Origin: Nitrososphaerota archaeon
GTDB taxonomy: Archaea; Thermoproteota; Nitrososphaeria; Nitrososphaerales; Nitrosopumilaceae
DNA length: 32,000 nucleotides
NCBI GenBank assembly: GCA_022564515.1
Contig: JADFLH010000006.1
Coordinates: 5,326-37,325 of the forward strand
Reading direction: 5' to 3'
Shown: positions 2,470-25,036 of the stretch, in pieces
How positions within the stretch are numbered: the first letter of the stretch is position 1
How the letters are laid out: the number at the start of each line of letters is the position of its first letter
Program-made: the position numbers and the translations under genes
Notes under the pieces: model-generated
What the model was told of the DNA's origin: nothing
The model's input: only the letters and a program-made list of their open reading frames with translations
Database searches by the model: none

Positions 2470-2537
2470 AATTTAGAATTTAATGAATGAAATGGTGGGA
2501 ATCCTTTTTTACAATTAATGAGATGAAAGTTTCAAGG

Positions 2538-2605: not shown

Positions 2606-2795
2606 CTTTACTCTAATGCCTAAAAAGGAACACGTATTATTTCTACTAGAATTTCCACTCTGTGCTTGAAGTGTGTCTGATCAATAAGGTACTATTTAAT
2701 GACAAATGCTTGTTTCTGAATCTATATCTAGTCCTTTAGCAATCAATTCTTAATTAATTGCATTACACCTTCTGTGCCATCATAATGGGCATGTT

Positions 2796-2996
2796 TTATT
2801 TTAGTGAGGTTTGTAAATACTGCACTTTTTTTTGATTCTGAGCTAACTCTTTCGCATAATCATCGACTAGTAAATTAGTAATTTTTTGTATATACTCTAT
2901 CTCATCATTATGTAGATGGTCACGTCCAGCATCAGCTACATTTTTGATCACAGCACTGATTTCAGTTATTAGAGTAGTTCTAGCCCAAATGCCCAA
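2796..2996 (-). CDS. hypothetical protein (helical, 66 aa)
   Basis: This is the only ORF of 60 aa or more in the 2400-3144 gap. No recognisable motif. Confidence 0.3.
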   Translation of the reverse strand: MGIWARTTLITEISAVIKNVADAGRDHLHNDEIEYIQKITNLLVDDYAKELAQNQKKVQYLQTSLK

Positions 2997-3144
2997 TTAT
3001 ATTACTATAGCAGCTTTGTATTTAATGATGATGTTGTGTCAGATGATCATGTTACACAAACTTTCAAATTTGGAAAGTTTGTTTCATTAAAACTATTCTA
3101 TAGACATTTTGGGTTTTTGGTTTACATCTTACACAAACTAAAAA

Positions 3145-3453
3145 CTAATAATTGATTTTTTTAATTCTTACCTGGCTTCCCTTTGATTCAAAAAAATGTC
3201 CCAAATAATTCTTGAGTTGTTCACCTATTCTAAATCCCAATGCTCCTTCCATCATACCCGACTTTTCGATTATGTAGGACATTTCTGAGCTTATCTGAAT
3301 GTTAAAAAAAGTCCATCCAGCCTTTGTAAACGACTCACTTATTTCAAAACCATTTTTTACTTTGCAAATACTTTCAAGTTCTTGCATTGCTTTTTTCACT
3401 AACTTGATTTCTTCTTCATATTTTCTTGTACTTAGCTGAAATAACGCCCTCAT
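3145..3453 (-). CDS. hypothetical protein; full-length paralog of the frameshifted gene at 12491-12783
   Basis: 102-aa ORF. A hand alignment to the 12491 ORF shares Y..(D/E)I..(I/V)KKA...L...C......G, FF and Y.IE, and the similarity continues after frame correction of the second copy. Confidence 0.55.
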   Translation of the reverse strand: MRALFQLSTRKYEEEIKLVKKAMQELESICKVKNGFEISESFTKAGWTFFNIQISSEMSYIIEKSGMMEGALGFRIGEQLKNYLGHFFESKGSQVRIKKINY

Positions 3454-3513
3454 CAGTATGATTATTCATTTCATCCATAATAACTAGTTCACAACAACTG
3501 ATGACTTTGATTT

Positions 3514-3531
3514 ACATTTGATACGAAATAC
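3514..3531. repeat. degenerate copy (15/18) of the dispersed imperfect palindrome: acatttgatacgaaatac
   Basis: The first 14 nt are identical to ACATTTGATACGAA. It abuts the stop codon of the archaeosortase-like gene and lies 60 nt upstream of the 102-aa ORF start. Confidence 0.6.
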
Positions 3532-4493
3532 TAATTTTGTTGCTTTGTAACAGCTTCATTTTTTTTTATTCGCCTAGTCTCTATAGTCATAACTATCAGC
3601 AAAAATATGAAAAGCCATGGCAGAAACATTATCTCGCCAGCCACTGAATGAAACTCTTCCCATTTGGCAGCATTTGTGGTAACCTTTAGTGCATAAGCTG
3701 AAAGCGCAAAAATTCGAATTACATTTACTGTGATTGTTCCCAAGATTCCTAGTCCAAAGTATACGGCCTTTCTGTTTCTTGGAATGTTCATTTTGAGCAA
3801 AAATGCCATCATTACAAGTGAAAAAATGATGATGCTGTGAACACCTGCGGATGGCCAAAACACCTGCAACACAAATGGCCCATGATCTCCTCTAAGAAAC
3901 ATAATATTGCCTCGTGCAGTAGCTTCACCCAAATCAAATAGAGTTACTAGCCAAACATTAAGATCTACAAGATATGGAACAAAGTATTGTAATGGTCCTA
4001 GTGAATCGTAAGGGAAAAAGGCATCAAGTGATAAAATTATTGCGCTTCCTCCAAGAAAGATTGGCCCCGCCGGTCCTATTCGAATCCATTTTTTTCCAAA
4101 GTAAATAGAAAGAGCTGCAATGACAAATATTGTCATTATGATAAAGTCCCACATCCAGGTCCATGATAAGATTAGCTGTATGTTGTAAACTTCGGCTCCC
4201 TGTTCAATGTATTCTCGTAATCCAAATTCCAGTGAAACGAGATATACAATTACTAGAGCTGCCAAAGGAATCACAACTAGGAGCCTCTTTTTTGAGATTA
4301 CAAACTTTAGGCCTACTAGTTCTGCTACAATAAATGCCAGTGCAAAGAGAAATCCTCCCCGTCCCTGGTTCCAGCTCAGGCTGAATGTATCTGGAAATGC
4401 TACAAGAGCAAACAGAATCGGGCTGGATACAATTGCGATTGCGATATAGAGGTTTTTGTTTTTCACTTTGTTTTTTTCAGTTTGATGGGTCAA
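3531..4493 (-). CDS. exosortase/archaeosortase-family polytopic membrane protein (thaumarchaeosortase-like), cysteine-free
   Basis: 320 aa with about 8 hydrophobic segments. Motif order and spacing resemble the family as I remember it: VFWPSAGVHSIIIF (in place of the xxCSGxxS nucleophile motif), TVNVIRIFAL (NxxRI) 45 aa later, and EEFHSVAGEIMF. The protein has no Cys at all. Confidence 0.6.
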   Translation of the reverse strand: MTHQTEKNKVKNKNLYIAIAIVSSPILFALVAFPDTFSLSWNQGRGGFLFALAFIVAELVGLKFVISKKRLLVVIPLAALVIVYLVSLEFGLREYIEQGAEVYNIQLILSWTWMWDFIIMTIFVIAALSIYFGKKWIRIGPAGPIFLGGSAIILSLDAFFPYDSLGPLQYFVPYLVDLNVWLVTLFDLGEATARGNIMFLRGDHGPFVLQVFWPSAGVHSIIIFSLVMMAFLLKMNIPRNRKAVYFGLGILGTITVNVIRIFALSAYALKVTTNAAKWEEFHSVAGEIMFLPWLFIFLLIVMTIETRRIKKNEAVTKQQN

Positions 4494-4508
4494 TAAAAGG
4501 TTAGTAGA

Positions 4509-4649
4509 TTATTTTTGCTTTATTGTGGAGCTTTTCTTTGCTATCTTTTTTCGTCTTTTTTTCTTGTAATATGCAGAATCAAATCCTGTGTCTTTGCCTT
4601 TCATTTGTTTTTCACCGATGATTAATGCTTTGAATGTTCCCAACTTCAT
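4509..4649 (-). CDS. possible small basic protein (46 aa), below the ORF-track cutoff
   Basis: Hand-translated as MKLGTFKALIIGEKQMKGKDTGFDSAYYKKKRRKKIAKKSSTIKQK. Its ATG overlaps the methyltransferase TGA stop (ATGA). It ends 15 nt before the archaeosortase-like start. Confidence 0.3.
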   Translation of the reverse strand: MKLGTFKALIIGEKQMKGKDTGFDSAYYKKKRRKKIAKKSSTIKQK

Positions 4650-5206
4650 AATTTTTTGAGTAAATTAAATCGAGATTTTTCAGGATCAATTTCTTCATGC
4701 ATGTCAACGTTGCTGATTATCTTTACTTTGAAATCTAACCATCTTTTGTACAAGTTTCTATATCTAGATTTGCCGTCAGGACTAATTAGATCTTCATCCT
4801 CGCCAAACAATTCAAAATTTACAATGTATTTTCTTGAAACCCGAAATAATTCACTTATTGCATCTAGCATATCATTATCATCAATGTAATTCAAAACCTT
4901 GTGAGTGAAAACCAAATCAAATGAAGAATTTTCATATGGCAATTCAAGAATAGAGCCTTTTTTGAACTTGAATGAACCAAGTTTCTGTTTTGCTTTTTCT
5001 AGCGCATGATCATTGAGATCAAGTCCATGAACATCAAAATTCTCAGGAAATGCTCTTAGATCATTTCCTGTACCACAGCCTACCTCAAGAACAGTTTGAG
5101 CCCTTAGTGAAAGAGCCAGGTCACAGATGAATTTCGAAAATTCCTCGTTGTAATTAGAATCATTTGTATTGGCATACTTTGTCCAAAAGTCATTGTCATA
5201 TTTCAT
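4646..5206 (-). CDS. class I SAM-dependent methyltransferase
   Basis: VLEVGCGTGNDL (motif I), an acidic residue after beta-2 (HGLDLN) and FDLVFTHKVLNYI (motif II/III region). Confidence 0.85.
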   Translation of the reverse strand: MKYDNDFWTKYANTNDSNYNEEFSKFICDLALSLRAQTVLEVGCGTGNDLRAFPENFDVHGLDLNDHALEKAKQKLGSFKFKKGSILELPYENSSFDLVFTHKVLNYIDDNDMLDAISELFRVSRKYIVNFELFGEDEDLISPDGKSRYRNLYKRWLDFKVKIISNVDMHEEIDPEKSRFNLLKKL

Positions 5207-5418
5207 AAAATATTTTCAAATCTTACAGTATTTTCATCTTCTTTAACTATTTTGACACCTTTGCTGTCAAAAAAACTTTGTATAGTTCCATTCCATTTTC
5301 TAATGCTTTCAAAACTTGGTCTTTGATTGGTCTTTTTTGCAGTTCCTTTTTTGTAATCTATATACCAGTATTCGTTTGATTTAGAATTAATGTTTGTTTG
5401 TACCCATAAATTTGTCAT
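5203..5418 (-). CDS. hypothetical protein, translationally coupled to the methyltransferase
   Basis: 71-aa ORF whose stop overlaps the methyltransferase start by 4 nt. Confidence 0.45.
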   Translation of the reverse strand: MTNLWVQTNINSKSNEYWYIDYKKGTAKKTNQRPSFESIRKWNGTIQSFFDSKGVKIVKEDENTVRFENIL

Positions 5419-5622
5419 TTTTCTTTCCTGCCACCAAATTTGCTTTGAAATACTAATCAGCTAGAGAGCCAAGTAATCTTTTAGCTGTGAATAATCAAAC
5501 AAATCGGTGCCAGTCTTTCTTAATTTGGCCATAATATTATTACTATAATACTAGTTTAAAGTGGTTTTAATGAATTTAAAAAGTTCAAAAATCATAATCT
5601 GTAAATAGAAAAGTGATGATAA

Positions 5623-6231
5623 TTGTCCGAGCTTGATTACATGGATTTAGAAATCTTGTATCAGGCTAAAAAATCTAAAAATGGCATCAGTCCTGAAGCT
5701 GTTAGCCAACAAGACGTTTTCACTCCTGGAATATGGGAGCTTGTAGACAAGTTTGCTTCCATGCAAGAAAAAAATCTGCTTACCAAAAACAAGGAAGGAT
5801 TGTTTGTTTTAACAAAAAATGGAATTAATACATTTTGGGACATCGAATCTCCCTTGTGGTTGAATTTGTTGAAATTATTACGTGTCAAACCACTAGCAGA
5901 TATCGAATGCGCGAGGTATCTTGAGGAATACATTCCCGCCGTACAACAAGCCCTTGAGATGATTAGAAAAAAGGGATACATTATGATGTCACAGTTAAGA
6001 AAAGAGGAAAAACTACTCAAAATGTTTGAGATATTGCCGGAGGGAGTTGAACAGATTACAAAATTAAAGAAAAAGGACATGTTTGTTGTAAAATCAGGCG
6101 ACAAATTAGTTGTTGAATTAGATGATGGTGATGGAATACTCTATGAAATAATTGATGACCTGGTAAATCCTCTGAGAATGATTAAAACATTATCAGAGGA
6201 CGAGATAAAAAAATACAAGCAAACTCTATAG
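5623..6231 (+). CDS. hypothetical protein (possibly tandem winged-helix-like)
   Basis: 202-aa ORF with a TTG start in the track. An in-frame ATG at 5641 (MDLEILYQ...) is an equally plausible start. No firm family. Confidence 0.55.
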   Translation: MSELDYMDLEILYQAKKSKNGISPEAVSQQDVFTPGIWELVDKFASMQEKNLLTKNKEGLFVLTKNGINTFWDIESPLWLNLLKLLRVKPLADIECARYLEEYIPAVQQALEMIRKKGYIMMSQLRKEEKLLKMFEILPEGVEQITKLKKKDMFVVKSGDKLVVELDDGDGILYEIIDDLVNPLRMIKTLSEDEIKKYKQTL

Positions 6232-6310
6232 TTTTCTTGCACTACTAGCCTTGATATGGTGAATCTGAAAAATTCCTGAAATTAAGAAAAAACAAAGTAT
6301 ATTTTAACTA

Positions 6311-6493
6311 TTGAATCTTATAAATGAAGAAATGAATCTAGAAGTTGAGAATTATAAAAAGATTCAGATTGGAAAAGTCATCAGTAGCAAAGATAGTCCA
6401 GTGGGAATCGATGCCAAAAAAACTCACATTATCATTATTAACAAGCTATTTGAAATTGAGAAACGATTAGATAAACTTGAAAAATCTCGTTAA
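6311..6493 (+). CDS. hypothetical small protein
   Basis: 60-aa ORF from TTG, with an in-frame ATG at 6332. The C-terminus looks coiled-coil (FEIEKRLDKLEKSR). Its stop codon overlaps a palindrome copy. Confidence 0.35.
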   Translation: MNLINEEMNLEVENYKKIQIGKVISSKDSPVGIDAKKTHIIIINKLFEIEKRLDKLEKSR

Positions 6494-6510
6494 CATTTGA
6501 TACGAACTGA
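6493..6510. repeat. copy (17/18) of the dispersed imperfect palindrome: acatttgatacgaactga
   Basis: Read directly. It is preceded by cgtta, so it sits in cgttaacatttgatacgaactga. It lies 68 nt upstream of the UDG start. Confidence 0.85.
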
Positions 6511-6578
6511 TTTACTAGATATCTATTGGGGGGTTGAATTCACTTTTTTAATCTATTTAGATGCTTTAATAGAAAAGT

Positions 6579-7256
6579 ATGAGATTGAAAAAATCCCATT
6601 CCCTAAAAACCATAAACAAAAAAATAATCAAATGCAAAAAATGTCCAAGGCTAAATTCATACATTAAGGAAATTTCAAAAACCAAAGTAAAGCGATTCAA
6701 GGATCAAAAATATTGGGGCAAACCACTGCCTGGTTTTGGGGATATTAACGCTAAAATTCTGATTGTGGGTTTGGCACCAGCTGCACATGGTGGAAATAGA
6801 ACAGGTAGAATGTTTACTGGTGATTCATCAGGGGACTGGATTGCAAAGGCACTATATCAAAATGGGTTTGCAACCCAACCAACTAGCACTCATATTGGTG
6901 ATGGTTTTTCTTTAATTGATACCTACATTACAGCCGTGATTCGTTGTGCTCCGCCACAAAACAAGCCCCTAAACAGTGAATTAGAAAATTGTTCAGCTTT
7001 TTTGAAAAAAGAACTTTTGATTCTTGAAAACGTGAAAATAATAATTTGTCTGGGAAGAATTGCATTTACCAGTGTTTGCAGAATTTTGGCAATAAAGGGG
7101 CAAAAATTTTCTCACGGGCATATGTTTAAGCATGAAACCAGATTCATCATCTGCTCGTATCATCCTAGCAGGCAAAACACAAACACAGGTAGACTGGTTT
7201 GGAATCAGTGGAATTTGATATTTAAAAAAGCAAAGAAATTATCAAATCCCAAATAA
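6579..7256 (+). CDS. udg: uracil-DNA glycosylase, family 4/5 type (GLAPA motif, Fe-S Cys ligands)
   Basis: CKKCPRL near the N-terminus, ILIVGLAPAAHGGNRTGRMFTGDSSG (motif A of the GLAPA type, as in UDGb) and CSYHPSRQNTNTGRL (motif B). Confidence 0.9.
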   Translation: MRLKKSHSLKTINKKIIKCKKCPRLNSYIKEISKTKVKRFKDQKYWGKPLPGFGDINAKILIVGLAPAAHGGNRTGRMFTGDSSGDWIAKALYQNGFATQPTSTHIGDGFSLIDTYITAVIRCAPPQNKPLNSELENCSAFLKKELLILENVKIIICLGRIAFTSVCRILAIKGQKFSHGHMFKHETRFIICSYHPSRQNTNTGRLVWNQWNLIFKKAKKLSNPK

Positions 7257-7294
7257 TCTACTACCTTTTATGATCCATTTTACCCTAAAATAAA

Positions 7295-7828
7295 GTGAAA
7301 AACAAAAAGCTAATTCTGGGAATGATTGCAGCAGCAGTACTAATCGTATTTTCTACAAATTTTCTACCCGGTATCATAGAACCGCAAGAGATTTCAGATG
7401 AATATACCTATGAAACCACGTTTCCAGTTGGCCGTCCAATACAAAATGTAAATGAAAAAACAGACTGCAAAGGAGCTGCCATGTGCATGACAGGCGATGT
7501 AACAAAAATCATTGATGGTGATACAATTCATGTTTTAGGAAAAAAGATAAGACTGGCTCTTGTTGATACACCTGAAATTAATCAACCAGGATTTGTCGAG
7601 GCTACTGATTTTACAAGGCGTCTTTGTCCGGTTGGATCAAGCGTTCTTGTTGATCAGGATGATGGACAGATCATCGACAAATATGGCAGAATAATTGCAA
7701 AGGTTACATGCTCTGGCATGAACCTAAATGAGCAGCTTTTGGAAAACGATCATGCCATAATGCTGACTGGATTTTGTGATGTTAGTGAGTTTTCATCTGA
7801 ATCCTGGGCAAAAAAGTTTGGTTGTTAA
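7295..7828 (+). CDS. secreted/membrane-anchored thermonuclease (staphylococcal nuclease, SNase-like)
   Basis: N-terminal hydrophobic signal/anchor (LILGMIAAAVLIVF), then VTKIIDGDTIHVLGKKIRLALVDTPE, which is typical of the SNase fold. GTG start. Confidence 0.8.
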   Translation: MKNKKLILGMIAAAVLIVFSTNFLPGIIEPQEISDEYTYETTFPVGRPIQNVNEKTDCKGAAMCMTGDVTKIIDGDTIHVLGKKIRLALVDTPEINQPGFVEATDFTRRLCPVGSSVLVDQDDGQIIDKYGRIIAKVTCSGMNLNEQLLENDHAIMLTGFCDVSEFSSESWAKKFGC

Positions 7829-7887
7829 AATTTTGAATTTGTTAAACAAATCATTTAGCTGATCTTAGGATTATTTTCAGCCATGAA

Positions 7888-8010
7888 TTAGTTTTTTATT
7901 CCCTCATGTATGCCAAAGAGACATTCAGCGCACATTTTGTTTTGCTCAAAAACCGAATTGAAGCAATAGCATTTCTTACAATTACACTGAAAGCTTTCTA
8001 ATTTCAGCAT
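7888..8010 (-). CDS. possible 40-aa zinc-ribbon protein, below the ORF-track cutoff
   Basis: Hand-translated as MLKLESFQCNCKKCYCFNSVFEQNKMCAECLFGIHEGIKN, with CxCxxC ... CxxC. It overlaps the 3' end of the 84-aa ORF in another frame. Confidence 0.25.
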   Translation of the reverse strand: MLKLESFQCNCKKCYCFNSVFEQNKMCAECLFGIHEGIKN

Positions 8011-8236
8011 GTTTCCAATCTCCTATATCATAACCATCGCGTCTGAGATATTTCAATGTAAGCTTGTAAACGAGTTCGTCATGATCTACTTTTTCTAAAA
8101 GCTCATCCCATAACACTTTGCTTTTCTTATCAATCTCATTTTTTATTTGCACATTCATAGATTCGGCAATTTCTTCGCACTGGCTGAAGGTTTTTCCATT
8201 CTTATAAGCTCGTGTTCTGGTATCACAGCTATCCAT
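7982..8236 (-). CDS. hypothetical protein
   Basis: 84-aa ORF. No recognisable motif. Confidence 0.45.
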   Translation of the reverse strand: MDSCDTRTRAYKNGKTFSQCEEIAESMNVQIKNEIDKKSKVLWDELLEKVDHDELVYKLTLKYLRRDGYDIGDWKHAEIRKLSV

Positions 8237-8312
8237 ATTTTATTTTTGTTCTCATAGAATAAAAATGTGGGTGATTAGTTCAAAATCAAAATGAGTATAT
8301 CATGAAAATCAC

Positions 8313-8333
8313 AAAAAAGGGGGGGGTGGGTGT
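8313..8333 (-). terminator. possible oligo-T termination signal preceded by a C8 run (transcript sense cacccacccccccctttttt)
   Basis: Starts immediately after the stop (8334-8336) of the 112-aa ORF. Archaeal termination commonly uses oligo-T tracts. The + strand shows G8 at 8319-8326. Confidence 0.35.
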
Positions 8334-8672
8334 TTACTGCACCTTCATATCTTTATAATTAAAGGGTGGGATATTCATCTCTAAGAATTCTTTCAGTCTT
8401 TGTGTGATATCTTCTGTCGTAATATCATCCATACTGGGTGAGCCTATTTCAAAGGATATTTTGTTGGCACCAATGTTTGCATTCTGTATAACAAGATCTG
8501 CATATTGATTTGTAATTTCGTTGACATAGTACTCGGCTTCATCTGTCTTTACATCTGTAACTTCCCATTCTACTTTTATAGGTTTGAACTTTGCATCTCC
8601 AGCATAATCCTTTCCTGAGGAAAGGCCTTGATCTTTTGCAACTTCAGCATCTACCATTACAAAATATATCAT
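8334..8672 (-). CDS. hypothetical acidic protein
   Basis: 112-aa ORF. A TATA-like tatttaaa lies about 38 nt upstream of the ATG, and a palindrome copy lies 60 nt upstream. Confidence 0.5.
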   Translation of the reverse strand: MIYFVMVDAEVAKDQGLSSGKDYAGDAKFKPIKVEWEVTDVKTDEAEYYVNEITNQYADLVIQNANIGANKISFEIGSPSMDDITTEDITQRLKEFLEMNIPPFNYKDMKVQ

Positions 8673-8732
8673 CTGATGAAATAAAAACTATCCTAGCTTT
8701 TTCTTTAAATACTTTGAACATAATTCACGTTA

Positions 8733-8750
8733 ACAGTTCGTATCAAATGT
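8733..8750. repeat. exact copy of the dispersed imperfect palindrome: acagttcgtatcaaatgt (extended ttaacagttcgtatcaaatgttaa, 8730-8753)
   Basis: Read directly. It is inverted relative to the 6493 copy. Intergenic, between nre (stop at 8869) and the 112-aa ORF (start at 8672). Confidence 0.9.
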
Positions 8751-8868
8751 TAATTTGTATAAAAAAGGAAAATAAGCTAATTGAATTAAATTACTTTAAA
8801 CAAAACTTGGCCTAAAATAGAACAGCCTAAAATTAATTATTAATTTATCAATGATTTGTAGAATCAAT

Positions 8869-10026
8869 CTAAAAGAAATCAGAGATTCTCTTTTGTCTCA
8901 TTAATTTCAAAATAAAACCATGAGAAAGCCATTCTTTTGTACTAATACTCATGGGTTTAGCTGCAACATCAAGAGCATTCCCAAAGCTATCAGCTAAAAC
9001 AGGCTTTTGCTTCATAGCTTCTCGTACTCCTTCACGAATCTGCCAAACCCCAATAGGTATTGCATATTCTGGTCTTATCTCTCGCAAAACCAAGGCTCCT
9101 GATTGAATCTGGTTCCTTACAAGATATTCCCCAACAGCTAGCTTTGCTGCAAAGTAAGCACCAGCTATTTCAGGCGGATGATCAATTCCTCGCGCATCCT
9201 CATGATCAGAACCAAATCCCAATACTCCTTTTGAATACCATGCCTCTATCATTTCATATAGCCACCTGTACGGAAATAGTATCACAGAAAAAAGATTACC
9301 CATATGCTCAAAATGAAAAACCCTGACACCGTCAATTAAGGGATAATCAAGAGTCTCATCAATCAATGACTTTGATATAATATCATCAGTTGCAGTAATG
9401 CTCCATCGTGTAGGAACAAGTTTTCTTTTCTTTCCCATCATTCCAATCGAAAAGCATTTTTGAATCTGTGAAATCTCTATTCCAGAATTGTACAGCTTTA
9501 AAACAGCATCTGATGCTAAAAGGTCCCTGTCATAATACACTTTTTCAATTTGTCTTTGAGATGGCGAGCTTGAAAACTTGACACTCTTTATCTCCCCAAT
9601 TGGTCCAAATGGAGCACTATAACCATCAAGCAACCCAACAGGGGAAGTGGCCTTGTAAAACCGGATGTCTGAATCTGTTGCAGTTTCGGACATTGCAAGC
9701 TCTTGCAAATTCTCAATGTATCTGCCAGAAGGATCACTTACTGGAACCTTTTGGATTCCTCGAACCAGGTTTAGACGATAGTTTACTATTTCCTCTAGTG
9801 TTTTTCCAATCCATTTTTCAGGAGTATCTAAAAGACTGGTATCTCCATGAATTGGTGGAACCATTGGACCGACATTCACTTTGGGATAGTTATACGAACC
9901 AACAAAAACAGAAGGGGGGCTTGTTCCACTCAAAGAATCTGATGAAAAAAGATTCCCATACTTTGAGAGGTACTCGTTCCATTTAGCTTCAATTGCCTTT
10001 CTGATGTCTTGTGAGCTTGAAACCAC
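8869..10026 (-). CDS. nreA: Nre-family archaeal DNA repair protein (NreA-like) with a C-terminal PIP box
   Basis: SPPSVFVGSYNYPKVNVGPMVPP near the N-terminus matches what I recall of the Nre (DUF650/651) family, and the length of 385 aa fits. The extreme C-terminus QKRISDFF fits Qxx[ILM]xx[FY][FY]. GTG start. Confidence 0.78.
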   Translation of the reverse strand: MVSSSQDIRKAIEAKWNEYLSKYGNLFSSDSLSGTSPPSVFVGSYNYPKVNVGPMVPPIHGDTSLLDTPEKWIGKTLEEIVNYRLNLVRGIQKVPVSDPSGRYIENLQELAMSETATDSDIRFYKATSPVGLLDGYSAPFGPIGEIKSVKFSSSPSQRQIEKVYYDRDLLASDAVLKLYNSGIEISQIQKCFSIGMMGKKRKLVPTRWSITATDDIISKSLIDETLDYPLIDGVRVFHFEHMGNLFSVILFPYRWLYEMIEAWYSKGVLGFGSDHEDARGIDHPPEIAGAYFAAKLAVGEYLVRNQIQSGALVLREIRPEYAIPIGVWQIREGVREAMKQKPVLADSFGNALDVAAKPMSISTKEWLSHGFILKLMRQKRISDFF

Positions 10027-10605: not shown

Positions 10606-12054
10606 ATGTCTACAACGTCTCCAAAAAAAATTGGTGAGATGGAGTACATAATAGAACCTGATTCCACAAATGGCATGAAGGTTCCTATTAGAATTTTTGC
10701 AAATGAATCTCTTCTTACTAAAATGACAGCTGATAGGACAATTTGGCAGGCAACAAATGTTGCATCCATGCCAGGAATTGTTGGGCATACAGTTGTGTTG
10801 CCAGATGGTCATGAAGGATATGGGTTCCCAGTGGGATGTGTTGCTGCCATGGATGCAAAAGAAGGAATGATTAGTCCTGGAGGAGTAGGTTATGATATTA
10901 ACTGCGGAGTTAGACTTGTTCGAACAAATTTGATGGAATCAGATGTACGACCACAAATTAAGGAACTTGTAACCGATCTTTTCAATTCAATTCCATCAGG
11001 AGTGGGTTCAAAAGGAACTATAAGGCTTAGTCAATCACAACTTGATGAAGTTTTAGTTAGAGGAGTTCAATGGGCCATAGACAATGGATATGGAACATCT
11101 GAAGATGCCGAAGCATGTGAAGAATCTGGTCAAATGGAAAATGCTGATCCAAACAAGGTTTCAGATAGAGCAAGAAAAAGAGGTGCACCACAACTTGGTA
11201 GCTTAGGTTCAGGAAATCATTTCCTTGAAATACAACGTGTTGAAGAAGTACATGACGAAGAAGCTGCAAAAAGAATGGGAATTGAAAAAGGGCACATCAC
11301 AATTCTTATTCATTGTGGTTCTAGAGGTTTTGGCCATCAAATATGCAGTGATTATCTAAGAACTTCCGAAAGAGCATTGGCAAAGTACAACATTGAATTA
11401 GCTGATAGAGAGTTAGCTTGTGTTCCAAATACCTCTGAAGAGGGAGAATCTTATAGAAAGGCAATGTTCTCAGCACTAAATTTTGCATGGTGTAATAGGC
11501 ACATGATCACTCATTGGACAAGAAAATCATTTGAACGTGTACTCAAACAATCAGAATCAGATCTTGAAATGAATTTAGTGTATGATGTTGCACACAACAT
11601 TGCAAAGGTGGAAAATCACAAAATTGAGGGAAAGGAAAGATCTGTTGTGGTTCATAGAAAAGGAGCTACTCGCGCCTTTCCAGCAAATAGAGATGAAGTT
11701 CCAAAAAAATACAGAGATTTAGGACAACCCGTATTTATTCCAGGGTCCATGGGCACTGCAAGTTGGATTTTACTTGGCCAACCAAACTCAATGAATCTAA
11801 CTTTTGGTTCAACAGCCCATGGTGCAGGAAGAACGATGTCTAGAACAAAGGCAAGAAAAAGTTTTACTGAATCCCAAGTAAAAAAATCGTTGAGTGATAA
11901 GGGAATTTTTATAAAATCTCTTACTAGAGATGGCATAGTTGAGGAAACTCCTCAAGCCTACAAGGATGTTGATGCAGTAGTTCATGTCTCTCATGAATTA
12001 GGAATTGCCACCAAGGTTGCCAAACTTATTCCTATAGGTGTGATTAAGGGTTGA
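10606..12054 (+). CDS. rtcB: RNA-splicing ligase RtcB (3'-phosphate/5'-hydroxyl RNA ligase)
   Basis: 482 aa. MPGIVGHTVVLPDGHEGYGFPVG, GGVGYDINCGVRL, GSGNHFLEIQ, HCGSRGFGHQ, GSMGTASWIL and STAHGAGR are the canonical RtcB metal- and GTP-binding motifs. Confidence 0.96.
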   Translation: MSTTSPKKIGEMEYIIEPDSTNGMKVPIRIFANESLLTKMTADRTIWQATNVASMPGIVGHTVVLPDGHEGYGFPVGCVAAMDAKEGMISPGGVGYDINCGVRLVRTNLMESDVRPQIKELVTDLFNSIPSGVGSKGTIRLSQSQLDEVLVRGVQWAIDNGYGTSEDAEACEESGQMENADPNKVSDRARKRGAPQLGSLGSGNHFLEIQRVEEVHDEEAAKRMGIEKGHITILIHCGSRGFGHQICSDYLRTSERALAKYNIELADRELACVPNTSEEGESYRKAMFSALNFAWCNRHMITHWTRKSFERVLKQSESDLEMNLVYDVAHNIAKVENHKIEGKERSVVVHRKGATRAFPANRDEVPKKYRDLGQPVFIPGSMGTASWILLGQPNSMNLTFGSTAHGAGRTMSRTKARKSFTESQVKKSLSDKGIFIKSLTRDGIVEETPQAYKDVDAVVHVSHELGIATKVAKLIPIGVIKG

Positions 12055-12488
12055 GTGACAATGATAAAGAATTAGAAAAATTAAAGGAAAGGCGATTAGC
12101 TGAAATGCAGAAAAATATTTTGTTTAAACAAAAACAAGAGAAACTTTTGGCTTCACAGAAGGAACAGCCAGACGAAGAACTAAAACCACGTGACATTCTT
12201 GCAAGTAGATTAGGTTATAGAGGGCTAGAAGTACTTCAAAATGCTGAATCACAATTTCCAAACGAAACTAAAATCGTCGTTGAAAAATTATCAGAACTTA
12301 TTTCCGCTGGTGAGGTTAATGAACAGATGGATGGTGGTAAACTTTTACTTCTGTTTAGATCTGTAGGTCTCAACGTAAGAGTAAAGACAAAAATTAGCAT
12401 TGAAGAAGATGGAAAATTTGTTTCACTTTCGGAGAAGCTAAGTGTAAAATATTCAAGTTCTGAACCTACAAATCAAACAGATAATTAA
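12051..12488 (+). CDS. PDCD5/TFAR19-like double-stranded DNA-binding protein
   Basis: Overlaps the rtcB stop by 4 nt (TTG start in the track, so the start is uncertain). ELEKLKERRLAEMQK ... RLGYRGLEVLQNAESQFPNETKIVVEKLSELISAGEV resembles the archaeal PDCD5 family as remembered. Confidence 0.55.
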   Translation: MSDNDKELEKLKERRLAEMQKNILFKQKQEKLLASQKEQPDEELKPRDILASRLGYRGLEVLQNAESQFPNETKIVVEKLSELISAGEVNEQMDGGKLLLLFRSVGLNVRVKTKISIEEDGKFVSLSEKLSVKYSSSEPTNQTDN

Positions 12489-18264: not shown

Positions 18265-20016
18265 TTATAGAAGATTTCCAACTAATTTTTTAATAGAATC
18301 AATTTCTTCTTCTTCTTGTTTTATTTTCTTGTCTATCACACGAAGCATTGCGTCATTCCAAACATGATGAGAAAAGAAATTATGTTTTGTATTTGCAAGT
18401 TCAATTTCATCATCCACCGCGGTGTCTTCTAGAAATTTTGTCACGACAACATCTGCGAGTTTAAGAATCCTAGAATTTAACTTAAAACTCCGAAAAACAG
18501 GCTCTAATTTGTGTATATCCAGCTTAAAGTCGCCTTTAGTTTCTAGTATTTTTTTATTTAATATTCTAAAGTATACGGCCACATAAAATAAGGTGGCATA
18601 TCTTTTCGTTTTGTGTTCTCCCCTCTTTCCATATCTTAAGGCCTTCTTAGCGAATTCCTTTACAAAATAAGGATAAAGCAAAAGTTTGTAATCATCTTTC
18701 AAATTTTCATTGAACACTTCATCATATTTGCGACCTCTAGGCAAAAATTGTGCTGGAGAACTATATGCTTCAGTCGGTCTTTGTTCTATACCGGCCACCA
18801 AAGCCTGAATAGCATCTTTAGCAACGATTACTTTTTTGTGATTATTTGGTAGGTAATTATTGTAAGTAAAATCGCCATCAAATTCAGCTTGTTCAGATTT
18901 AGTTTTACAATCAAAAGAACCTGCTTGAATTTCATAAAAATAGCAGTGGTTTTTTAGTTGAGATTTAATTGATTTATGAAAATCCATTAATGAAACAAGA
19001 TCTTTACCTCTAACAGAATTCTGTGAATTTCTGTATTTTGTAATGTTGTTTTGGTCTTGTTCATCATCTGCCCTAATTATTGTAACAGTCATACTCCCTG
19101 TCATATTTCGTGTACGCTTTGCATGATCTAAAATTGAATTTGATGTTTGGGCACCATTAACAATTTGTGGAGTGTGTAACAAGAGTTTATTCTCTCCTAG
19201 TTCTTCAAATTCACTTACCACTATAGTAATTCCATTATTATAATAGAAGAATTTGTCAGGATCAGTTTGAAGAGTTTCACGTAATCCTTTATTCACAGAA
19301 GTTTTGAACTGCATCCACTGTCTAATATTTGATTCAAAAACATAGTCTCTATTTCTGGTTACAAACTCTGTGAGCTCACGTAGTTTTAAAATCCCAAGAA
19401 TCGTGTTTTCATGTCGCAGCATTTTTTCCAATTTTATAGTTGATTTTTTGCCAGCGGCTGGTTTTTTTATTCGATCCCATAATATTTGGATAATTGCATT
19501 GATATCAACAATCTCTACTTCGTTGTCTTCATATTCTACCTTTTGATCTGTGACATAACAGCATTCGATCTTAAGATTTTTTTCATGTATGACTGTCACA
19601 AGACGTGCCAATTCAGGTCGCATTTTTGTAATATCGCGTTCAAGAAGTCTTTTTACATCCTCTTTGAATTTAATTATGGCGTCAGTTGAGTGTGATGTAG
19701 CATATTTTGATTGAAATAATCGAATTTTATTCTCAGAAAAATCCACAGGAAGATATGCATCAATACCTAGATCATTAGCACCATCTACTATTGCATCGGC
19801 AGCATCATCTTCTGTTGCTTCAAAAACTCTTGTTAGTACCCACTGAAGAAAGTTGTTGCCTTTTTCTACCTCAGTTTTTGCACTCTCAACATAATCACGA
19901 ATGCTTTTACCAATGTTTTCTGAAAATCCTTCAAGAGGGATACTAGAATTTTTTTGAGCTAATAATGATCTTGATCCTGGAATGTATTCCAATAAACCAC
20001 TGTTGTTTTGTGCCAA
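18265..20016 (-). CDS. AIPR-family abortive-infection/phage-resistance protein
   Basis: 583 aa. The N-terminal IVDGANDLGIDAYLPVD...IRLFQSKY (nuclease-like D..D..QxK arrangement) and the central FFYYNNGITIV ... PQIVNGAQTS match the AIPR (Abi-like) signature as I remember it. Confidence 0.72.
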   Translation of the reverse strand: MAQNNSGLLEYIPGSRSLLAQKNSSIPLEGFSENIGKSIRDYVESAKTEVEKGNNFLQWVLTRVFEATEDDAADAIVDGANDLGIDAYLPVDFSENKIRLFQSKYATSHSTDAIIKFKEDVKRLLERDITKMRPELARLVTVIHEKNLKIECCYVTDQKVEYEDNEVEIVDINAIIQILWDRIKKPAAGKKSTIKLEKMLRHENTILGILKLRELTEFVTRNRDYVFESNIRQWMQFKTSVNKGLRETLQTDPDKFFYYNNGITIVVSEFEELGENKLLLHTPQIVNGAQTSNSILDHAKRTRNMTGSMTVTIIRADDEQDQNNITKYRNSQNSVRGKDLVSLMDFHKSIKSQLKNHCYFYEIQAGSFDCKTKSEQAEFDGDFTYNNYLPNNHKKVIVAKDAIQALVAGIEQRPTEAYSSPAQFLPRGRKYDEVFNENLKDDYKLLLYPYFVKEFAKKALRYGKRGEHKTKRYATLFYVAVYFRILNKKILETKGDFKLDIHKLEPVFRSFKLNSRILKLADVVVTKFLEDTAVDDEIELANTKHNFFSHHVWNDAMLRVIDKKIKQEEEEIDSIKKLVGNLL

Positions 20017-21509: not shown

Positions 21510-21836
21510 GTGGATAGAATCAAAAAATTTTCTTTGGAAGTTTTAAAAAACTACAAAGCCCATTTTGGAACGAACTTTGAAGAGAATAAAAAAACCTTGG
21601 AACAATTTTCAATAATTCGTTCTAAAGGTCTTAAAAATGAAATTACGGGTTATATAACAAAATATATCAAACATGAAATTCTTGATAAAAAGAAAAAGGA
21701 AGAAAGAATAGCTAAACAAGACAAACTAGATGATACTCAAGAAGAAAACTTGGACATTGGTGAACCTAAAATTCAAAGTAACACTGACACTGAAAACCCC
21801 TCTGTTAAGGAAAAACCTCGGGGGATTTTTGAATAA
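21510..21836 (+). CDS. rps17e: 30S ribosomal protein eS17 with a K/E/D-rich C-terminal extension
   Basis: FGTNFEENKKTLEQFSIIRSKGLKNEITGYITKYIK matches the S17e core (F..DFE.NK......SK..RN.IAGY.T). About 50 extra C-terminal residues are present. GTG start. Confidence 0.8.
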   Translation: MDRIKKFSLEVLKNYKAHFGTNFEENKKTLEQFSIIRSKGLKNEITGYITKYIKHEILDKKKKEERIAKQDKLDDTQEENLDIGEPKIQSNTDTENPSVKEKPRGIFE

Positions 21837-21883: not shown

Positions 21884-22657
21884 TTGATTCAAGTAAAACT
21901 GTTGGGCGGAGCAAAAAAATCTTTTTCAGCTGACACGATCTCTATTGATAAGGATAGTCTGACTATTGCTGAGCTAATTGATTATTTACAAAAAACCAAA
22001 CCTGAGAACACTCCTGATTTAGATGTAAATAATCTACTAGTAGTAGTAAACGGAGTTGATTCTTCTGCCATAGAAGGAAAAATTACAAAATTAAAAAATA
22101 ATGATGTTGTTAGCATCATTCCAATAATTCATGGAGGTTCATCAAGGTCAACTATTCAAATTTCAAAATATTTTGTAGAAATATTGGAAATCAAACCAAA
22201 CAAAACCCAAAGCATAGATTTTCTAAATTATTTGAGAAAAAAATATCCTGATTTGGTTATACAAGGAATATCGCCAAAATATATTCTTAGTAAATCACAC
22301 GCAAAAAAAATTCTTGAAATTTCAGTTGAAGCACAAAATTCTCATAATATGCTTTCACAAAAACTTGAAATTGATATATTGATGCGATTTGCCTGTACTA
22401 GACAAATTTCAAAAGCTATTTCTGAAGCAGGAATCAAATCAAAACAAAGTTTTATCGTTATTGCTTTAGGTAAGAAATTTTCTTTGGAAAATTTGTATTC
22501 TGAACTAAAGCCATATCTAAGCTCAAAAAATATCTCATTAAACAATACTGGATTTCTAAAAAATCAATTTAAAATTTCAAACAAACAAATTGATTCAGTC
22601 TACTCAAAAAAACCCTTAGAAGACTTGTTAGCTGAAAAGGCTGCTGTCTTATTCTAA
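21884..22657 (+). CDS. cgi121: fusion protein: N-terminal ThiS/MoaD-like ubiquitin-fold domain ending in HGG (aa 1-85) plus KEOPS subunit Cgi121 (aa ~90-257)
   Basis: The N-terminus IQVKLLGGAKKSF...TIAELIDYL...LLVVVNGVDS...LKNNDVVSIIPIIHGG is the classic beta-grasp ThiS/MoaD/SAMP pattern, including the Gly-Gly (codons 22133-22138). The rest aligns by eye to M. jannaschii Cgi121 (EIDILMRFACTRQISKAISEAGIK..SFIVIAL against EILVRASGQRQIHEAIKIIGAKDGNVCLI, and the C-terminal LLAEKAAVL). It is a single uninterrupted frame with a TTG start. Confidence 0.7.
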   Translation: MIQVKLLGGAKKSFSADTISIDKDSLTIAELIDYLQKTKPENTPDLDVNNLLVVVNGVDSSAIEGKITKLKNNDVVSIIPIIHGGSSRSTIQISKYFVEILEIKPNKTQSIDFLNYLRKKYPDLVIQGISPKYILSKSHAKKILEISVEAQNSHNMLSQKLEIDILMRFACTRQISKAISEAGIKSKQSFIVIALGKKFSLENLYSELKPYLSSKNISLNNTGFLKNQFKISNKQIDSVYSKKPLEDLLAEKAAVLF

Positions 22658-23170
22658 TAATTTTCGTTTAGATGTTTCCAAACTAAATATATCATCTTTC
22701 GTTAAAACTGAAATACCTGAAGTATTGCCCAGTATTTCAACCAAAACTATCCAATCTGGTTTTTCTAATGACACTTTATTTTGAATATTTTCAGCAATTT
22801 TTGAGATAATCTTCATACTTGGGAGGTTTGAATTCCGTTTCTCTACAGTTATTCGATAAGTTTCCTTTTCATTGACTCTTTCCATTAAGGAGTGAACCTG
22901 ATTAGATATGTCTTCTAAATTTGTATTTGCTACTTTTTGAATAGGAATTATTCGAAGACAATATCTTATTGACCAAGGTTCTTCAATAATTTTTTTCCTA
23001 ATCTGTTTTATCACTTCAAAAGTATCTAACTTAGTTCTTGCTGTGAGAATTCCTGACATGTCAGTTTCAGTAATTTCAGGATTGTCATCACCAAAAACCG
23101 TCAAAATTTTTTTTAATTCATCACGAGTTTCAGGTTCAAGATGTCTAGCACATGTAATAATTAAATTCAA
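22649..23170 (-). CDS. THUMP-domain RNA-binding protein (stand-alone)
   Basis: 173 aa. The N-terminal MNLIITCARHLEPETRDELKKIL and the C-terminal YRITVEKRNSNL...PDWIVLVEILGNTSGISVL resemble stand-alone archaeal THUMP proteins. Overlaps tsaC by 4 nt. Confidence 0.62.
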   Translation of the reverse strand: MNLIITCARHLEPETRDELKKILTVFGDDNPEITETDMSGILTARTKLDTFEVIKQIRKKIIEEPWSIRYCLRIIPIQKVANTNLEDISNQVHSLMERVNEKETYRITVEKRNSNLPSMKIISKIAENIQNKVSLEKPDWIVLVEILGNTSGISVLTKDDIFSLETSKRKLLE

Positions 23171-23775
23171 AATAAATTCAAAATCTCCTCTTTTGAAATA
23201 TTGCCTTCTCTATGAATTTGAATTTTTTTTTCATTGATTTCAACAATGGTGGATTCCCTATCCCCAGTAATTTTACCACCGTCAAGAAAGACTTCATTAT
23301 CTGAAATATTCTTGGCACATTCCTCAGGATCCGTAAACGAGCCTGAGCCTGATATATTGGCACTGGTACCTATGAGGAAGTTACATCGTTCTAAAAGTGC
23401 TAAGGCACACCTATTGTTTGGAACTCTTACAGCTACATTATTTTCTAAATTCATTGAATTTTTTAATTTTTCATCTTTGAGTGGTAAAACAAAGGTGATC
23501 TGTCCAGGCCAAAATTTTTCAGCAATTTTATTTGATCTTTCATCAAAGATTACAATTTTTGAAAGAACACTTTTTGAAAAACCTAAAATCGGAAACAGTT
23601 TATCATAATCACGATTTTTTATTCTGTAAATTTTATCAACAGATTCTTTGTTGTACGGATCACATCCAATTCCATAAACTGTATCTGTGGGAAAAATTAC
23701 AATACCTCCTTTCTTGATTGTTCGTTCTGCGATGTTTATTCCATCAGCATCACATTTTATTCTCAAAGTTTTCAA
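23167..23775 (-). CDS. tsaC: L-threonylcarbamoyladenylate synthase, short YrdC/TsaC form (t6A pathway)
   Basis: GGIVIFPTDTVYGIGCDPYN, IYRIKNRDYDKLFPIL, FWPGQITFVL, VAVRVPNN and IGTSANISG are the YrdC/Sua5 N-domain motifs. At 202 aa there is no Sua5 C-terminal domain. Confidence 0.9.
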   Translation of the reverse strand: MKTLRIKCDADGINIAERTIKKGGIVIFPTDTVYGIGCDPYNKESVDKIYRIKNRDYDKLFPILGFSKSVLSKIVIFDERSNKIAEKFWPGQITFVLPLKDEKLKNSMNLENNVAVRVPNNRCALALLERCNFLIGTSANISGSGSFTDPEECAKNISDNEVFLDGGKITGDRESTIVEINEKKIQIHREGNISKEEILNLF

Positions 23776-23929: not shown

Positions 23930-25036
23930 CTAGAATTTTGAATCTACCATAACAAGACAATGGTCAATCTTGCCCTTGTAAGGTGTGGATACTGAAAAAT
24001 GTCTAAAATCCTTTGATGCAACATCTACAATCTTTGAAAGACCTGTAGCTACAACATTTCCAAAATCATCGAATAGAAGTAACTTGAAAAACAATGCATC
24101 ATAGTAAATATTGTCATTGGTATAATCACCAGATAAAGTTACAATATTGTTTTGCTTTTTACACAGCACCCCACTAAACTGATCATTGTATTTTGATTCG
24201 TAAAAATTCATCGAACTGACATATAGATTAGTTTGTTGAGCCAAAGAAAGCTTAGCTTGGTGCTCTTTTAGCTGCATATTCTTTTCTGCCAAGGCCGACA
24301 TTACTTGAATTTCTTTTTTGGATGGGTCTTCAGTAATAATTCCTTTTTCGATAAGATACTCTATTGAATTTTGATACTCTTGCTCTGAAATTATTCCTTG
24401 TTTGTGCCACTTTAAGATTTTTTGAACCCAGCTTGGAAGGGGATATTTTTGTGAAGAATCTGTTGTAGACAAAAGTATCTTTTTACAGTTTGGACACGAA
24501 GTAGAATGATGGTTGTCCATCATAACAAGATAGTATCTTTTTGTACCGTCCATGTTTAGAATTTCATTATTCCAAATTCGCAAAACATCAAAACAAATTG
24601 TAAAAACTTTTGATTGGCCCATTTTAACTCGATCATTTGTATAGTCACATTCATTGAAGAGCTCACGAGAGTAGAAATTGTCATATTTGACTTCTAGCTC
24701 AAAATCGTAACTTACGTAATAGTTGTCTACAATCTCAAGGACATCATTATTTTGATTGTTATCTCCAATAGGTTCCATCAACCAAATATTGAACATCGTA
24801 GCATGCACAACAAAATAATCTATACCATTGTTTGTAATGTTGATTGTTATCTTGATAAGATCAGCATCATCAAAGTAATAATCTGGAGTGTCATCCATTG
24901 AGAGAACTTGAAGATCCATTACCTGAAGATCAATCAAATCCAAGTCGTAATCGCCAGGTTGGAAAGCGGAGACTAAAGGAACTCCAATTACTAATGTAAT
25001 AATTGCAGGAAGGATAAAATGGAAATTCAACGACAT
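23930..25036 (-). CDS. hypothetical secreted/anchored protein
   Basis: 368 aa with an N-terminal hydrophobic signal/anchor (FHFILPAIITLVIGVPLVSAF). The remainder is soluble and Y/N/D-rich. No family recognised. Confidence 0.6.
   Translation of the reverse strand: MSLNFHFILPAIITLVIGVPLVSAFQPGDYDLDLIDLQVMDLQVLSMDDTPDYYFDDADLIKITINITNNGIDYFVVHATMFNIWLMEPIGDNNQNNDVLEIVDNYYVSYDFELEVKYDNFYSRELFNECDYTNDRVKMGQSKVFTICFDVLRIWNNEILNMDGTKRYYLVMMDNHHSTSCPNCKKILLSTTDSSQKYPLPSWVQKILKWHKQGIISEQEYQNSIEYLIEKGIITEDPSKKEIQVMSALAEKNMQLKEHQAKLSLAQQTNLYVSSMNFYESKYNDQFSGVLCKKQNNIVTLSGDYTNDNIYYDALFFKLLLFDDFGNVVATGLSKIVDVASKDFRHFSVSTPYKGKIDHCLVMVDSKF

Follow-up and report, generated by a model that had tools for sequence, protein, structure and literature searches.

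A ubiquitin-like domain fused through a conserved Gly-Gly to the KEOPS subunit Cgi121 in a Nitrososphaerota archaeon

We examined a 32,000-nucleotide stretch of DNA from an ammonia-oxidising Nitrososphaerota archaeon of the Nitrosopumilaceae (contig JADFLH010000006.1 of assembly GCA_022564515.1, positions 5,326 to 37,325; hereafter the window), in which one gene joins a ubiquitin-like (Ubl) domain to Cgi121, a subunit of the KEOPS complex. The gene lies at positions 21884..22657 of the forward strand and is an uninterrupted open reading frame (ORF) of 257 amino acids, with a TTG start and a stop codon at 22655-22657; the encoded protein has a calculated mass of 28.7 kDa. The original prediction, made from the DNA letters alone, read this frame as a Ubl domain running directly into Cgi121, and the intact ORF, Pfam and NCBIfam profiles and fold matches all agree with it.

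The architecture is a rediscovery of one that is already known. The Ubl-Cgi121 fusion in Thaumarchaea and its linkage to the gene for ribosomal protein S17e were described by Makarova and Koonin (Archaea 2010:710303; PMC2948915), according to whom it was conserved in every thaumarchaeon available at the time; its processing was not addressed there. The fusion, on whose earlier description the original prediction took no position, was therefore already explicit in print. Our literature searches found no experimental characterisation or further discussion of the fusion, and a 2021 review of KEOPS does not mention it. The present analysis adds a survey of fused, split and tailed forms, the finding that the Gly-Gly is conserved above the rest of the protein, and a JAB protease gene as neighbour in one clade.

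A Ubl domain and Cgi121 in one reading frame

Residues 1-85 (21884..22138, forward strand) form a Urm1/ThiS/MoaD-like beta-grasp domain that ends in IIPIIHGG. Pfam ThiS (PF02597) matched residues 14-85 at 34.9 bits (cut-off 22.5) and Pfam Urm1 (PF09138) matched residues 2-85 at 25.8 bits (cut-off 21.8). Consistent with these profiles and with the sulfur-carrier-like fold that had been predicted, a Foldseek search with an AlphaFold2 model matched its N-terminal part to Urm1, SAMP1 and MoaD structures (2k9x, 6yuc_G, 4wwm and 1fm0_D) and to CysO. The best NCBIfam matches of the first 85 residues were Urm1_like, which at 27.6-31.5 bits stayed below its cut-off of 70, and archaeal MoaD, which like the SAMP1 and moaD equivalogs was also below its own cut-off. 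Because these narrower families all fell short, we assign the domain to the ThiS/MoaD/Urm1 superfamily and to none of the named equivalogs; Makarova and Koonin placed it in the ThiS group arCOG00535 (PMC2948915). The domain is acidic (calculated isoelectric point 5.1) and would have a mass of 9.1 kDa if released. Its mean identity to the query exceeds that of the Cgi121 domain both among close relatives (65.8 versus 57.6% in alignment A1) and among distant ones (47.3 versus 37.7% in alignment A2), and this slower evolution argues that the Ubl domain is not vestigial.

Another domain with the beta-grasp fold is TGS, which touches the CCA ends of tRNAs. A TGS-like RNA-binding module that helps Cgi121 to hold the tRNA acceptor end would suit the binding of the CCA tail by Cgi121 (PMC7718258) and the presence of an RNA-binding THUMP protein as a conserved neighbour. 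However, profiles and fold point to ThiS, MoaD, Urm1 and SAMP, with no TGS match, and the stand-alone orthologues of the domain are about 84 residues long and end in Gly-Gly. Together with the acidic charge of the domain, these observations led us to reject a TGS-like role, which we regard as hardly credible.

The remaining residues 86-257 (22139..22654, forward strand) constitute the Cgi121 domain, which would have a calculated mass of 19.6 kDa if released. The NCBIfam Cgi121 equivalog NF011465 scored 128.3 bits with the whole protein and 125.8 bits with residues 86-257 alone (cut-off 40), and Pfam CGI-121 (PF08617) matched residues 122-240 at 31.7 bits (cut-off 25). Foldseek matched the C-terminal part of the model to all Cgi121/TPRKB structures solved so far, among them 4ww7_B, 3enp, 7kjt_H and 8up5_C with E values of 2e-8 to 2e-6, and the top 20 matches in the PDB were all Cgi121/TPRKB chains or the Cgi121-like Pyrococcus protein 1zd0, with template modelling (TM) scores, normalised to the target, of 0.66-0.74. 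These matches confirm the predicted identity of the C-terminal part. In a profile alignment, the family-invariant residues Gln174, Ile175 and Gly183 correspond to Gln71, Ile72 and Gly80 of Methanocaldococcus jannaschii Cgi121, which lie in the surface that contacts the tRNA 3'-CCA (Beenstock et al., PMC7718258). In that protein, where these residues were selected for mutagenesis, Gln71 and Ile72 touch the tRNA 3' tail directly, and substitutions of Ile72 abolished the synthesis activity for N6-threonylcarbamoyladenosine (t6A; PMC7718258). With this CCA-binding surface conserved, the Cgi121 part looks functional.

The AlphaFold2 model, for which 44 homologues were used, contains two well-folded domains, with a mean predicted local distance difference test score (pLDDT) of 87 and a predicted TM score (pTM) of 0.64; over the five models the mean pLDDT ranged from 87 down to 70. 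The only segment with pLDDT below 50 is residues 83-86 (HGGS), at the point where the two domains meet. Here the codons CAT GGA GGT (22130..22138, forward strand) encode His83-Gly84-Gly85, the C-terminal signature of the Ubl family and the proposed cleavage site (Gly85/Ser86), and the next codon in frame is TCA (Ser86). The Gly-Gly of the window protein is thus internal as encoded, whereas stand-alone orthologues (about 84 residues) end at HGG. The motif aligns with the C-terminal HGG of Trypanosoma brucei Urm1 (2k9x). It is kept in all 120 close homologues and in 164 of 173 fused proteins, down to an identity of about 26-30%; the other nine have HCS instead and all fall into a single 90%-identity cluster. 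The alignment columns of His83, Gly84 and Gly85 have zero entropy, which jumps to 1-3.7 bits directly after them. The junction that follows (residues 86-98, SSRSTIQISKYFV; 22139..22177, forward strand) is the least conserved stretch of the protein, with mean identities of 36% (A1) and 24% (A2), and leads into the first Cgi121 beta-strands. Across the family, the spacing from Gly-Gly to a conserved Cgi121 motif varies from 64 to 125 residues, the longer spacings being due to insertions, some of low complexity, in one Nitrososphaera-labelled protein and several unlabelled relatives. In Nitrosopumilales, about 3-5 residues separate Gly-Gly from the first Cgi121 strand.

The residue that follows Gly-Gly is Ser in 118 of the 164 proteins (72%) and Ala in 20 (12%); in the rest it varies, with Thr, Asn, Gly, Ile and Gln among the alternatives. 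The frequency of HGGS, the commonest junction, raises the idea that the Gly85-Ser86 bond cleaves itself by a His83-assisted N-to-O acyl shift, as in pyruvoyl enzymes and SEA domains; the product might then be a Ubl with an ester-activated C terminus. MoaX, which is likewise cut between Gly and Ser by a protease still unidentified (PMC4326299), would fit such a scheme. However, in about 28% of the fused proteins the residue past Gly-Gly is Ala, Ile, Gly, Gln, Asn, Lys, Val or Met, with which the shift is impossible, and His83 is equally conserved in the stand-alone orthologues that end in HGG. The histidine therefore belongs to the Ubl and not to a cleavage mechanism; the HGG histidine is also conserved in eukaryotic Urm1. 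With Ser not universal after Gly-Gly and His just as constant in the free proteins, we rejected self-cleavage as very improbable.

The fused form is widespread. A database search returned 1546 homologues, of which the best 120 were all 252-261 residues long and nearly all had both domains; those with an organism name were labelled Nitrosopumilaceae, apart from one labelled Nitrososphaerota, and the closest relative (96% identical) carries the label Nitrosopumilaceae. We also scanned one genome per GTDB species with alignment A1, found relatives in 360 species and inspected the loci of the best 80. These were all from Nitrosopumilales (Nitrosopumilus, Nitrosarchaeum, Nitrosotalea and others), and all 80, complete chromosomes included, carried an intact ORF of 255-259 residues with HGG, its start codon at the homologous position being ATG in 65, TTG in 13 and GTG in two. 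Deep-branching lineages with 26-29% identity have the fused form as well.

An assembly or sequencing artefact that joined two genes could be suspected from the split versions in relatives (see below) and from three Nitrosopumilales-like contigs in which the frame changes within a few codons past Gly-Gly (L001:2-609, L086:43-808 and L094:45-820). In these, the Ubl ends in HGGSL*, HGGNDD* and HGGTVECS*, and a Cgi121 start codon (TTG, ATGATG and ATG, respectively) overlaps the Ubl stop; they could be real gene fissions or assembly errors, as each is a single contig. They were chosen for breaks near Gly-Gly, so the position of the break is not independent evidence, and we do not lean on it. By contrast, the lengths of the best homologues and the presence of the fusion in the finished Nitrosopumilus maritimus genome in 2010 (PMC2948915) speak against an artefact, to which we give next to no credence. 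The fusion is real, because the ORF is intact in 80 of 80 species genomes, nearly all of which also keep the gene block around it, and neither a stop codon nor a frameshift after Gly-Gly, which the original prediction had named as grounds for splitting the gene, is seen in any of them.

Gene neighbourhood

The ribosomal protein S17e gene (21510..21836, forward strand; Pfam Ribosomal_S17e) ends 47 nucleotides upstream of the fusion gene and is its probable operon partner; of the 80 loci from the genome collection, 79 have S17e immediately before the Ubl. The window S17e has 108 amino acids, with a C-terminal extension rich in Lys, Glu and Asp, and the S17e calls in the metagenome loci that we inspected are only 54-82 amino acids long. 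In the 2010 table, the N. maritimus S17e has 129 amino acids (PMC2948915).

Convergent with the fusion gene lies a gene for a stand-alone THUMP protein of 173 amino acids (22649..23170, reverse strand; Pfam THUMP, 42.9 bits). At its 3' end it shares 9 nucleotides with the fusion gene, and its start overlaps by 4 nucleotides the end of the gene upstream of it in the same direction, which encodes a short-form Sua5/TsaC/YrdC L-threonylcarbamoyladenylate synthase of 202 amino acids (23167..23775, reverse strand; Pfam Sua5_yciO_yrdC, 173.6 bits; NCBIfam TIGR00057, 161.6 bits with a cut-off of 123.2). The profiles and coordinates thus match the neighbourhood that had been predicted from the sequence, with S17e upstream and convergent THUMP and YrdC/TsaC genes. 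THUMP is found at the same position in 80 of 81 loci, and in most soil-type loci of sufficient length, and Sua5/TsaC in 73 of 81. Nearly all of the 80 species loci keep the block histone(-)/TatD/S17e/fusion(+)/THUMP(-)/Sua5(-). The THUMP and Sua5 pair accompanies Cgi121 throughout the phylum, in fused and split lineages alike. The THUMP protein might bind tRNA as a partner of the synthase that makes threonylcarbamoyl-AMP, a pairing of which we found no description.

A Pfam scan of 36 ORFs of the window detected no E1-like or JAB/JAMM gene, and Bud32, Kae1 and Pcc1 are not encoded in the window either. Directly beyond Sua5 lies a 368-residue ORF (23930-25036, reverse strand) without a significant Pfam match, for which a relative was detected in only one of the 80 otherwise syntenic loci (L026); the conserved block appears to be bordered here by a variable site. 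Elsewhere in the window, a 583-residue protein (18265-20016, reverse strand) contains an AIPR (abortive-infection phage-resistance) domain (PF10592, E value 5.5e-56) and is a candidate antiviral defence gene. DNA-repair genes are concentrated at 1305-10026, including those for a DinB/Pol IV-type polymerase (1305-2399), a glycosylase of the uracil-DNA glycosylase superfamily (6579-7256), a staphylococcal-nuclease homologue (7295-7828) and archaeal Nre (8869-10026), and an RtcB RNA ligase and a PDCD5-like double-stranded DNA-binding protein are encoded at 10606-12488. In a 200-residue ORF at 337-939 (reverse strand), an Alba domain covers residues 114-176 and the N-terminal 113 or so residues are unmatched; the TTG start of this ORF may be over-extended.

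Relatives with split, tailed or Gly-Gly-less Ubl domains and a proposed precursor model

A scan of metagenomes with Nitrososphaerales-type Ubl queries found 474 relatives, and we inspected the best 80 of these loci along with 15 earlier ones (L082-L096), 95 in all. Their taxonomy is indirect, being based on 73-76% identity to Nitrososphaeraceae-labelled proteins. S17e lies directly upstream in nearly all of them, whether fused or split, and on contigs that extend far enough Cgi121 is followed by THUMP and Sua5. The two domains are fused in 28 loci and split, with a separate downstream Cgi121, in 48; in 17 the Ubl stands alone and in two the downstream region is off the contig. Of the 65 Ubl genes that are not fused, 27 have their stop codon immediately behind HGG and 38 continue into tails of 1-25 residues that are unlike one another (I, T, SP, TD, GPKAA, SPRHA, SQKDL, NNNEL, CFDIFLIHTENV and others).

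Several arrangements illustrate this variety. Three contigs from three samples carry the split operon TatD-S17e-Ubl-Cgi121-THUMP, in which an 84-residue Ubl ends in VHGG followed by TAG TAG, and the ATG of a 176-residue Cgi121 begins after a further 15 nucleotides. On five contigs of another lineage, a phosphoribosyltransferase gene sits between a Ubl ending in THGG and Cgi121, and in a Nitrososphaeraceae cluster the S17e-Ubl pair ends in HGGNNNEL with no Cgi121 downstream. In L095:5001-6349 and L096:2138-3486, the 196-residue phosphoribosyltransferase gene overlaps both the Ubl (THGG, then stop) and Cgi121; here the THUMP gene is missing and Sua5 abuts Cgi121 directly. The HCS lineage (L093:6001-6735, P0290, and the P0227 cluster), a high-GC (58%) lineage of Nitrososphaerota, retains a fused protein in the usual S17e, THUMP and Sua5 context, with His-Cys-Ser in place of His-Gly-Gly consistently in about ten assemblies.

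In 17 metagenome loci, a Prok-JAB gene (138 amino acids; PF14464, 59.9 bits) is divergent from the S17e-Ubl-Cgi121 genes, and all 17 copies keep the Glu, His-x-His, Ser and Asp residues. The spacing from His-x-His to Ser is one residue shorter than in the JAMM consensus. Ten of these loci have tailed Ubls and seven have Ubls ending at Gly-Gly; none is fused. In L088:3042-3455 (reverse strand), the gene occupies the place that TatD holds elsewhere, and it has the same position in L089, L090, L114, L117, L119, L124, L132, L135, L138, L140, L147, L148, L160, L164, L169 and L171, on contigs that are mostly of the soil Nitrososphaerales type. A tblastn search with the JAB protein of this soil clade against the window and 96 loci found only L088-L090, and the later metagenome loci gave 14 more of the same clade. 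Because the JAB proteins are 65-100% identical, the adjacency represents one moderately diverged clade and not many independent associations. Archaeal JAB genes were described as rarely linked to Ubl genes (PMC2948915), so this adjacency may be unreported.

A conserved Gly-Gly followed by a stop codon, an unrelated tail or a whole protein is the pattern expected of ubiquitin-type precursors, in which trimming exposes the terminal glycine. Since the Ubl either stops at Gly-Gly or continues into unrelated tails of 1-25 residues, the sequence past Gly-Gly appears to be evolutionarily free, as it is in ubiquitin precursors. Repeated fission or fusion exactly at Gly-Gly would be easiest to explain if the mature products were the same either way. 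The low model confidence at residues 83-86, the JAB neighbours of one clade and the cleaved fusions of other organisms (see below) also speak for cleavage. The original prediction had left two readings side by side, a precursor cleaved after Gly-Gly and a permanent KEOPS module; both are still live, and the comparative data favour cleavage without proving it. We therefore give a slightly better than even chance to the model in which the fusion is a precursor that is cleaved after Gly85 to yield a Urm1-like protein and free Cgi121.

According to this precursor model, the Ubl (residues 1-85) would be translated in one piece with Cgi121 (residues 86-257), and the Gly85-Ser86 bond would then be cut, most likely by one of the JAB/JAMM metalloproteases of the cell. 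The freed Ubl, with its Gly-Gly exposed, would be activated by a single E1-like enzyme and would act in sulfur transfer, the most plausible reaction being the 2-thiolation of U34 by an NcsA/Ncs6-type PP-loop ATPase; it might serve in protein conjugation as well. Cgi121, once released, would assemble with Bud32-Kae1-Pcc1 and bring tRNA by its CCA end for t6A37 synthesis, for which the neighbouring Sua5/TsaC would supply the substrate threonylcarbamoyl-AMP. The fusion would thus be a co-expression device that couples two modification systems of the anticodon loop. The two modifications, 2-thiouridine at position 34 (s2U34) and t6A37, are found together on tRNAs such as tRNA-Lys(UUU), which would give a rationale for coupling a Urm1-like carrier to Cgi121 and Sua5.

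The gene inventory published in 2010 is compatible with this scheme. N. maritimus and Cenarchaeum symbiosum were listed with only two Ubl proteins (Table S1, PMC2948915), which in N. maritimus are the 257-residue fusion and a 443-residue protein (Table S2, PMC2948915). A Ubl-E1-TBP fusion was reported in Thaumarchaeota in the same paper (PMC2948915), and we infer that the 443-residue protein is this fusion. If the inventory is complete, a free Ubl C terminus would therefore arise only by proteolysis. Both species have one E1-like gene, two JAB proteases (arCOG01139 and arCOG01138 in N. maritimus), one MesJ/NcsA-type PP-loop ATPase and several rhodaneses; they lack molybdenum-cofactor genes and use Thi4 for thiazole synthesis (PMC2948915). 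On this inventory, the last two features exclude molybdopterin and ThiS-type thiamine synthesis as targets, which leaves tRNA thiolation or protein conjugation.

The main rival reading is that the protein is a permanent two-domain KEOPS subunit, with the Ubl staying on Cgi121 as an adaptor, much like the integral UBL domains of eukaryotic proteins. The Ubl might dock the E1, the NcsA machinery or the proteasome on KEOPS or on tRNA, or its role might be the regulation of KEOPS; a hinge or a part of a binding epitope would then be what the Gly-Gly is kept for. Such a subunit would explain why the fusion is invariant in 80 of 80 Nitrosopumilales species and recurs in the deep-branching lineages, why the HCS lineage retains its Ubl without a Gly-Gly and why the Nitrosopumilales linker is so short, and it would suit the suggestion of Makarova and Koonin that the Ubl system functions in coordination with KEOPS or regulates it (PMC2948915). 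However, integral Ubl domains generally do not conserve a Gly-Gly of the terminal type, whereas here HGG is the most conserved element of the protein, and the linker past it varies from a few residues to more than 50. Furthermore, the Ubl and Cgi121 are separate proteins in many relatives, sometimes with an intervening gene or with no Cgi121 nearby, and the covalent link is therefore dispensable there; the model (pTM 0.64) also shows no confident packing between the domains. We consider a permanent subunit less likely than a cleaved precursor, though a serious rival to it.

Several observations weigh against the precursor model. Some archaea thiolate U34 without any Ubl. The strict retention of the fusion in Nitrosopumilales fits a function in cis as well as a precursor, and in the HCS lineage the Ubl must serve a purpose for which no free Gly-Gly is required. 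None of the fused loci, those of the 80 genomes included, has a JAB or E1 gene nearby, and the JAB adjacency is limited to one clade in which the genes are already split. The count of two Ubl proteins in N. maritimus is a 2010 annotation, in which small genes can be missed, and we found no direct evidence of cleavage from proteomics, mass or biochemistry in the literature.

We also tentatively advance a broader proposal, to which we give slightly less than an even chance: that in Nitrosopumilales the Urm1-like protein is made only as a pro-protein, one copy fused to Cgi121 and a second to E1, and is released by JAB/JAMM proteases, as an archaeal counterpart of the ubiquitin-fusion precursors. 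If so, the output of the U34-thiolation carrier would be tied one-to-one to the subunit that recruits tRNA for t6A37, this would be the first obligatory Ubl-precursor processing built into tRNA-modification enzymes, and it would offer a plausible evolutionary stepping stone to fusions of ubiquitin with translation proteins. Cleavage of the fusion would mean that Ubl-translation-protein fusions trimmed by JAMM proteases already exist in archaea that are relatives of the ancestors of eukaryotes, and that s2U34 and t6A37 are linked through gene expression. Should the protein instead be left uncleaved, the KEOPS complex of abundant marine ammonia oxidisers would have an extra Ubl module, which would matter for KEOPS regulation. 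The fusion will not surprise a specialist in archaeal Ubl proteins; a demonstration of its cleavage would be worthwhile.

Comparison with known systems

The window protein is an orthologue of the Thaumarchaea fusion described in 2010, with the same architecture, length and neighbourhood, and nothing essential differs. The N. maritimus protein (GI 161528937) also has 257 amino acids and is apparently co-transcribed with S17, and its neighbours are S17e and genes for proteins of 173 (arCOG00084) and 198 (arCOG01952) amino acids at the positions of THUMP and Sua5 (PMC2948915). Unlike in the 2010 account, in many lineages, mostly from soil and of the Nitrososphaerales type, the genes are split, the Ubl is tailed or a JAB gene lies alongside. 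The Cgi121 part has the same fold as canonical archaeal Cgi121 (M. jannaschii MJ0187; 3enh, 7kjt and 8up5), with equivalent CCA-contact residues, whereas canonical Cgi121 has no N-terminal Ubl and is only about 15% identical to the window protein.

The Ubl domain resembles Sulfolobales Urm1 (arCOG00540; Sulfolobus solfataricus 4wwm) and Haloferax SAMP2, which are small beta-grasp proteins with a Gly-Gly end and with the E1 UbaA and NcsA as partners. Urm1 and SAMP2 serve in both U34 2-thiolation and protein conjugation. The fold matches of the window domain include 4wwm, and the Sulfolobales Urm1 gene also adjoins S17e (PMC2948915). By contrast, Sulfolobales Urm1 and SAMP2 are free-standing, and the window domain is below the Urm1_like cut-off.

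As a co-expression fusion, the protein would be analogous to the eukaryotic ubiquitin-ribosomal-protein fusions and the bacterial MoaD-MoaE fusions. Mycobacterium tuberculosis MoaX, a MoaD-MoaE fusion, undergoes cleavage between Gly82 and Ser83, on which its activity depends (PMC4326299). The Deinococcus radiodurans MoaD-MoaE fusion is cleaved by a JAMM protease (PMC8832034), and HvJAMM1 cleaves a linear SAMP1-MoaE fusion in vivo (PMC4443979). MoaX and the Deinococcus protein share with the window protein an N-terminal Ubl of the ThiS/MoaD family, a Gly-Gly junction and a functional partner, and MoaX has the same Gly/Ser junction. The partners differ, however: MoaE uses the Ubl thiocarboxylate directly, whereas Cgi121 has no known Ubl chemistry, and cleavage of the window protein is a prediction.

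In ubiquitin-eL40, ubiquitin-eS31, tailed ubiquitin and the Caldiarchaeum subterraneum precursor, the Ubl is likewise N-terminal, is joined at a Gly-Gly and is released by a JAMM or other deubiquitinase; the C. subterraneum precursor is processed by CsRpn11 (PMC6043591), and the same organism has ThiS/MoaD-type Ubls with 12 and 89 residues past Gly-Gly (PMC3082918). As in the ubiquitin-ribosomal fusions, the window Ubl is attached to a translation-related protein, and its gene lies directly behind a ribosomal protein gene. Unlike the ubiquitin precursors, the window Ubl is of the Urm1/ThiS type and is joined to a tRNA-modification subunit, in a window that contains no E2 or E3 homologue.

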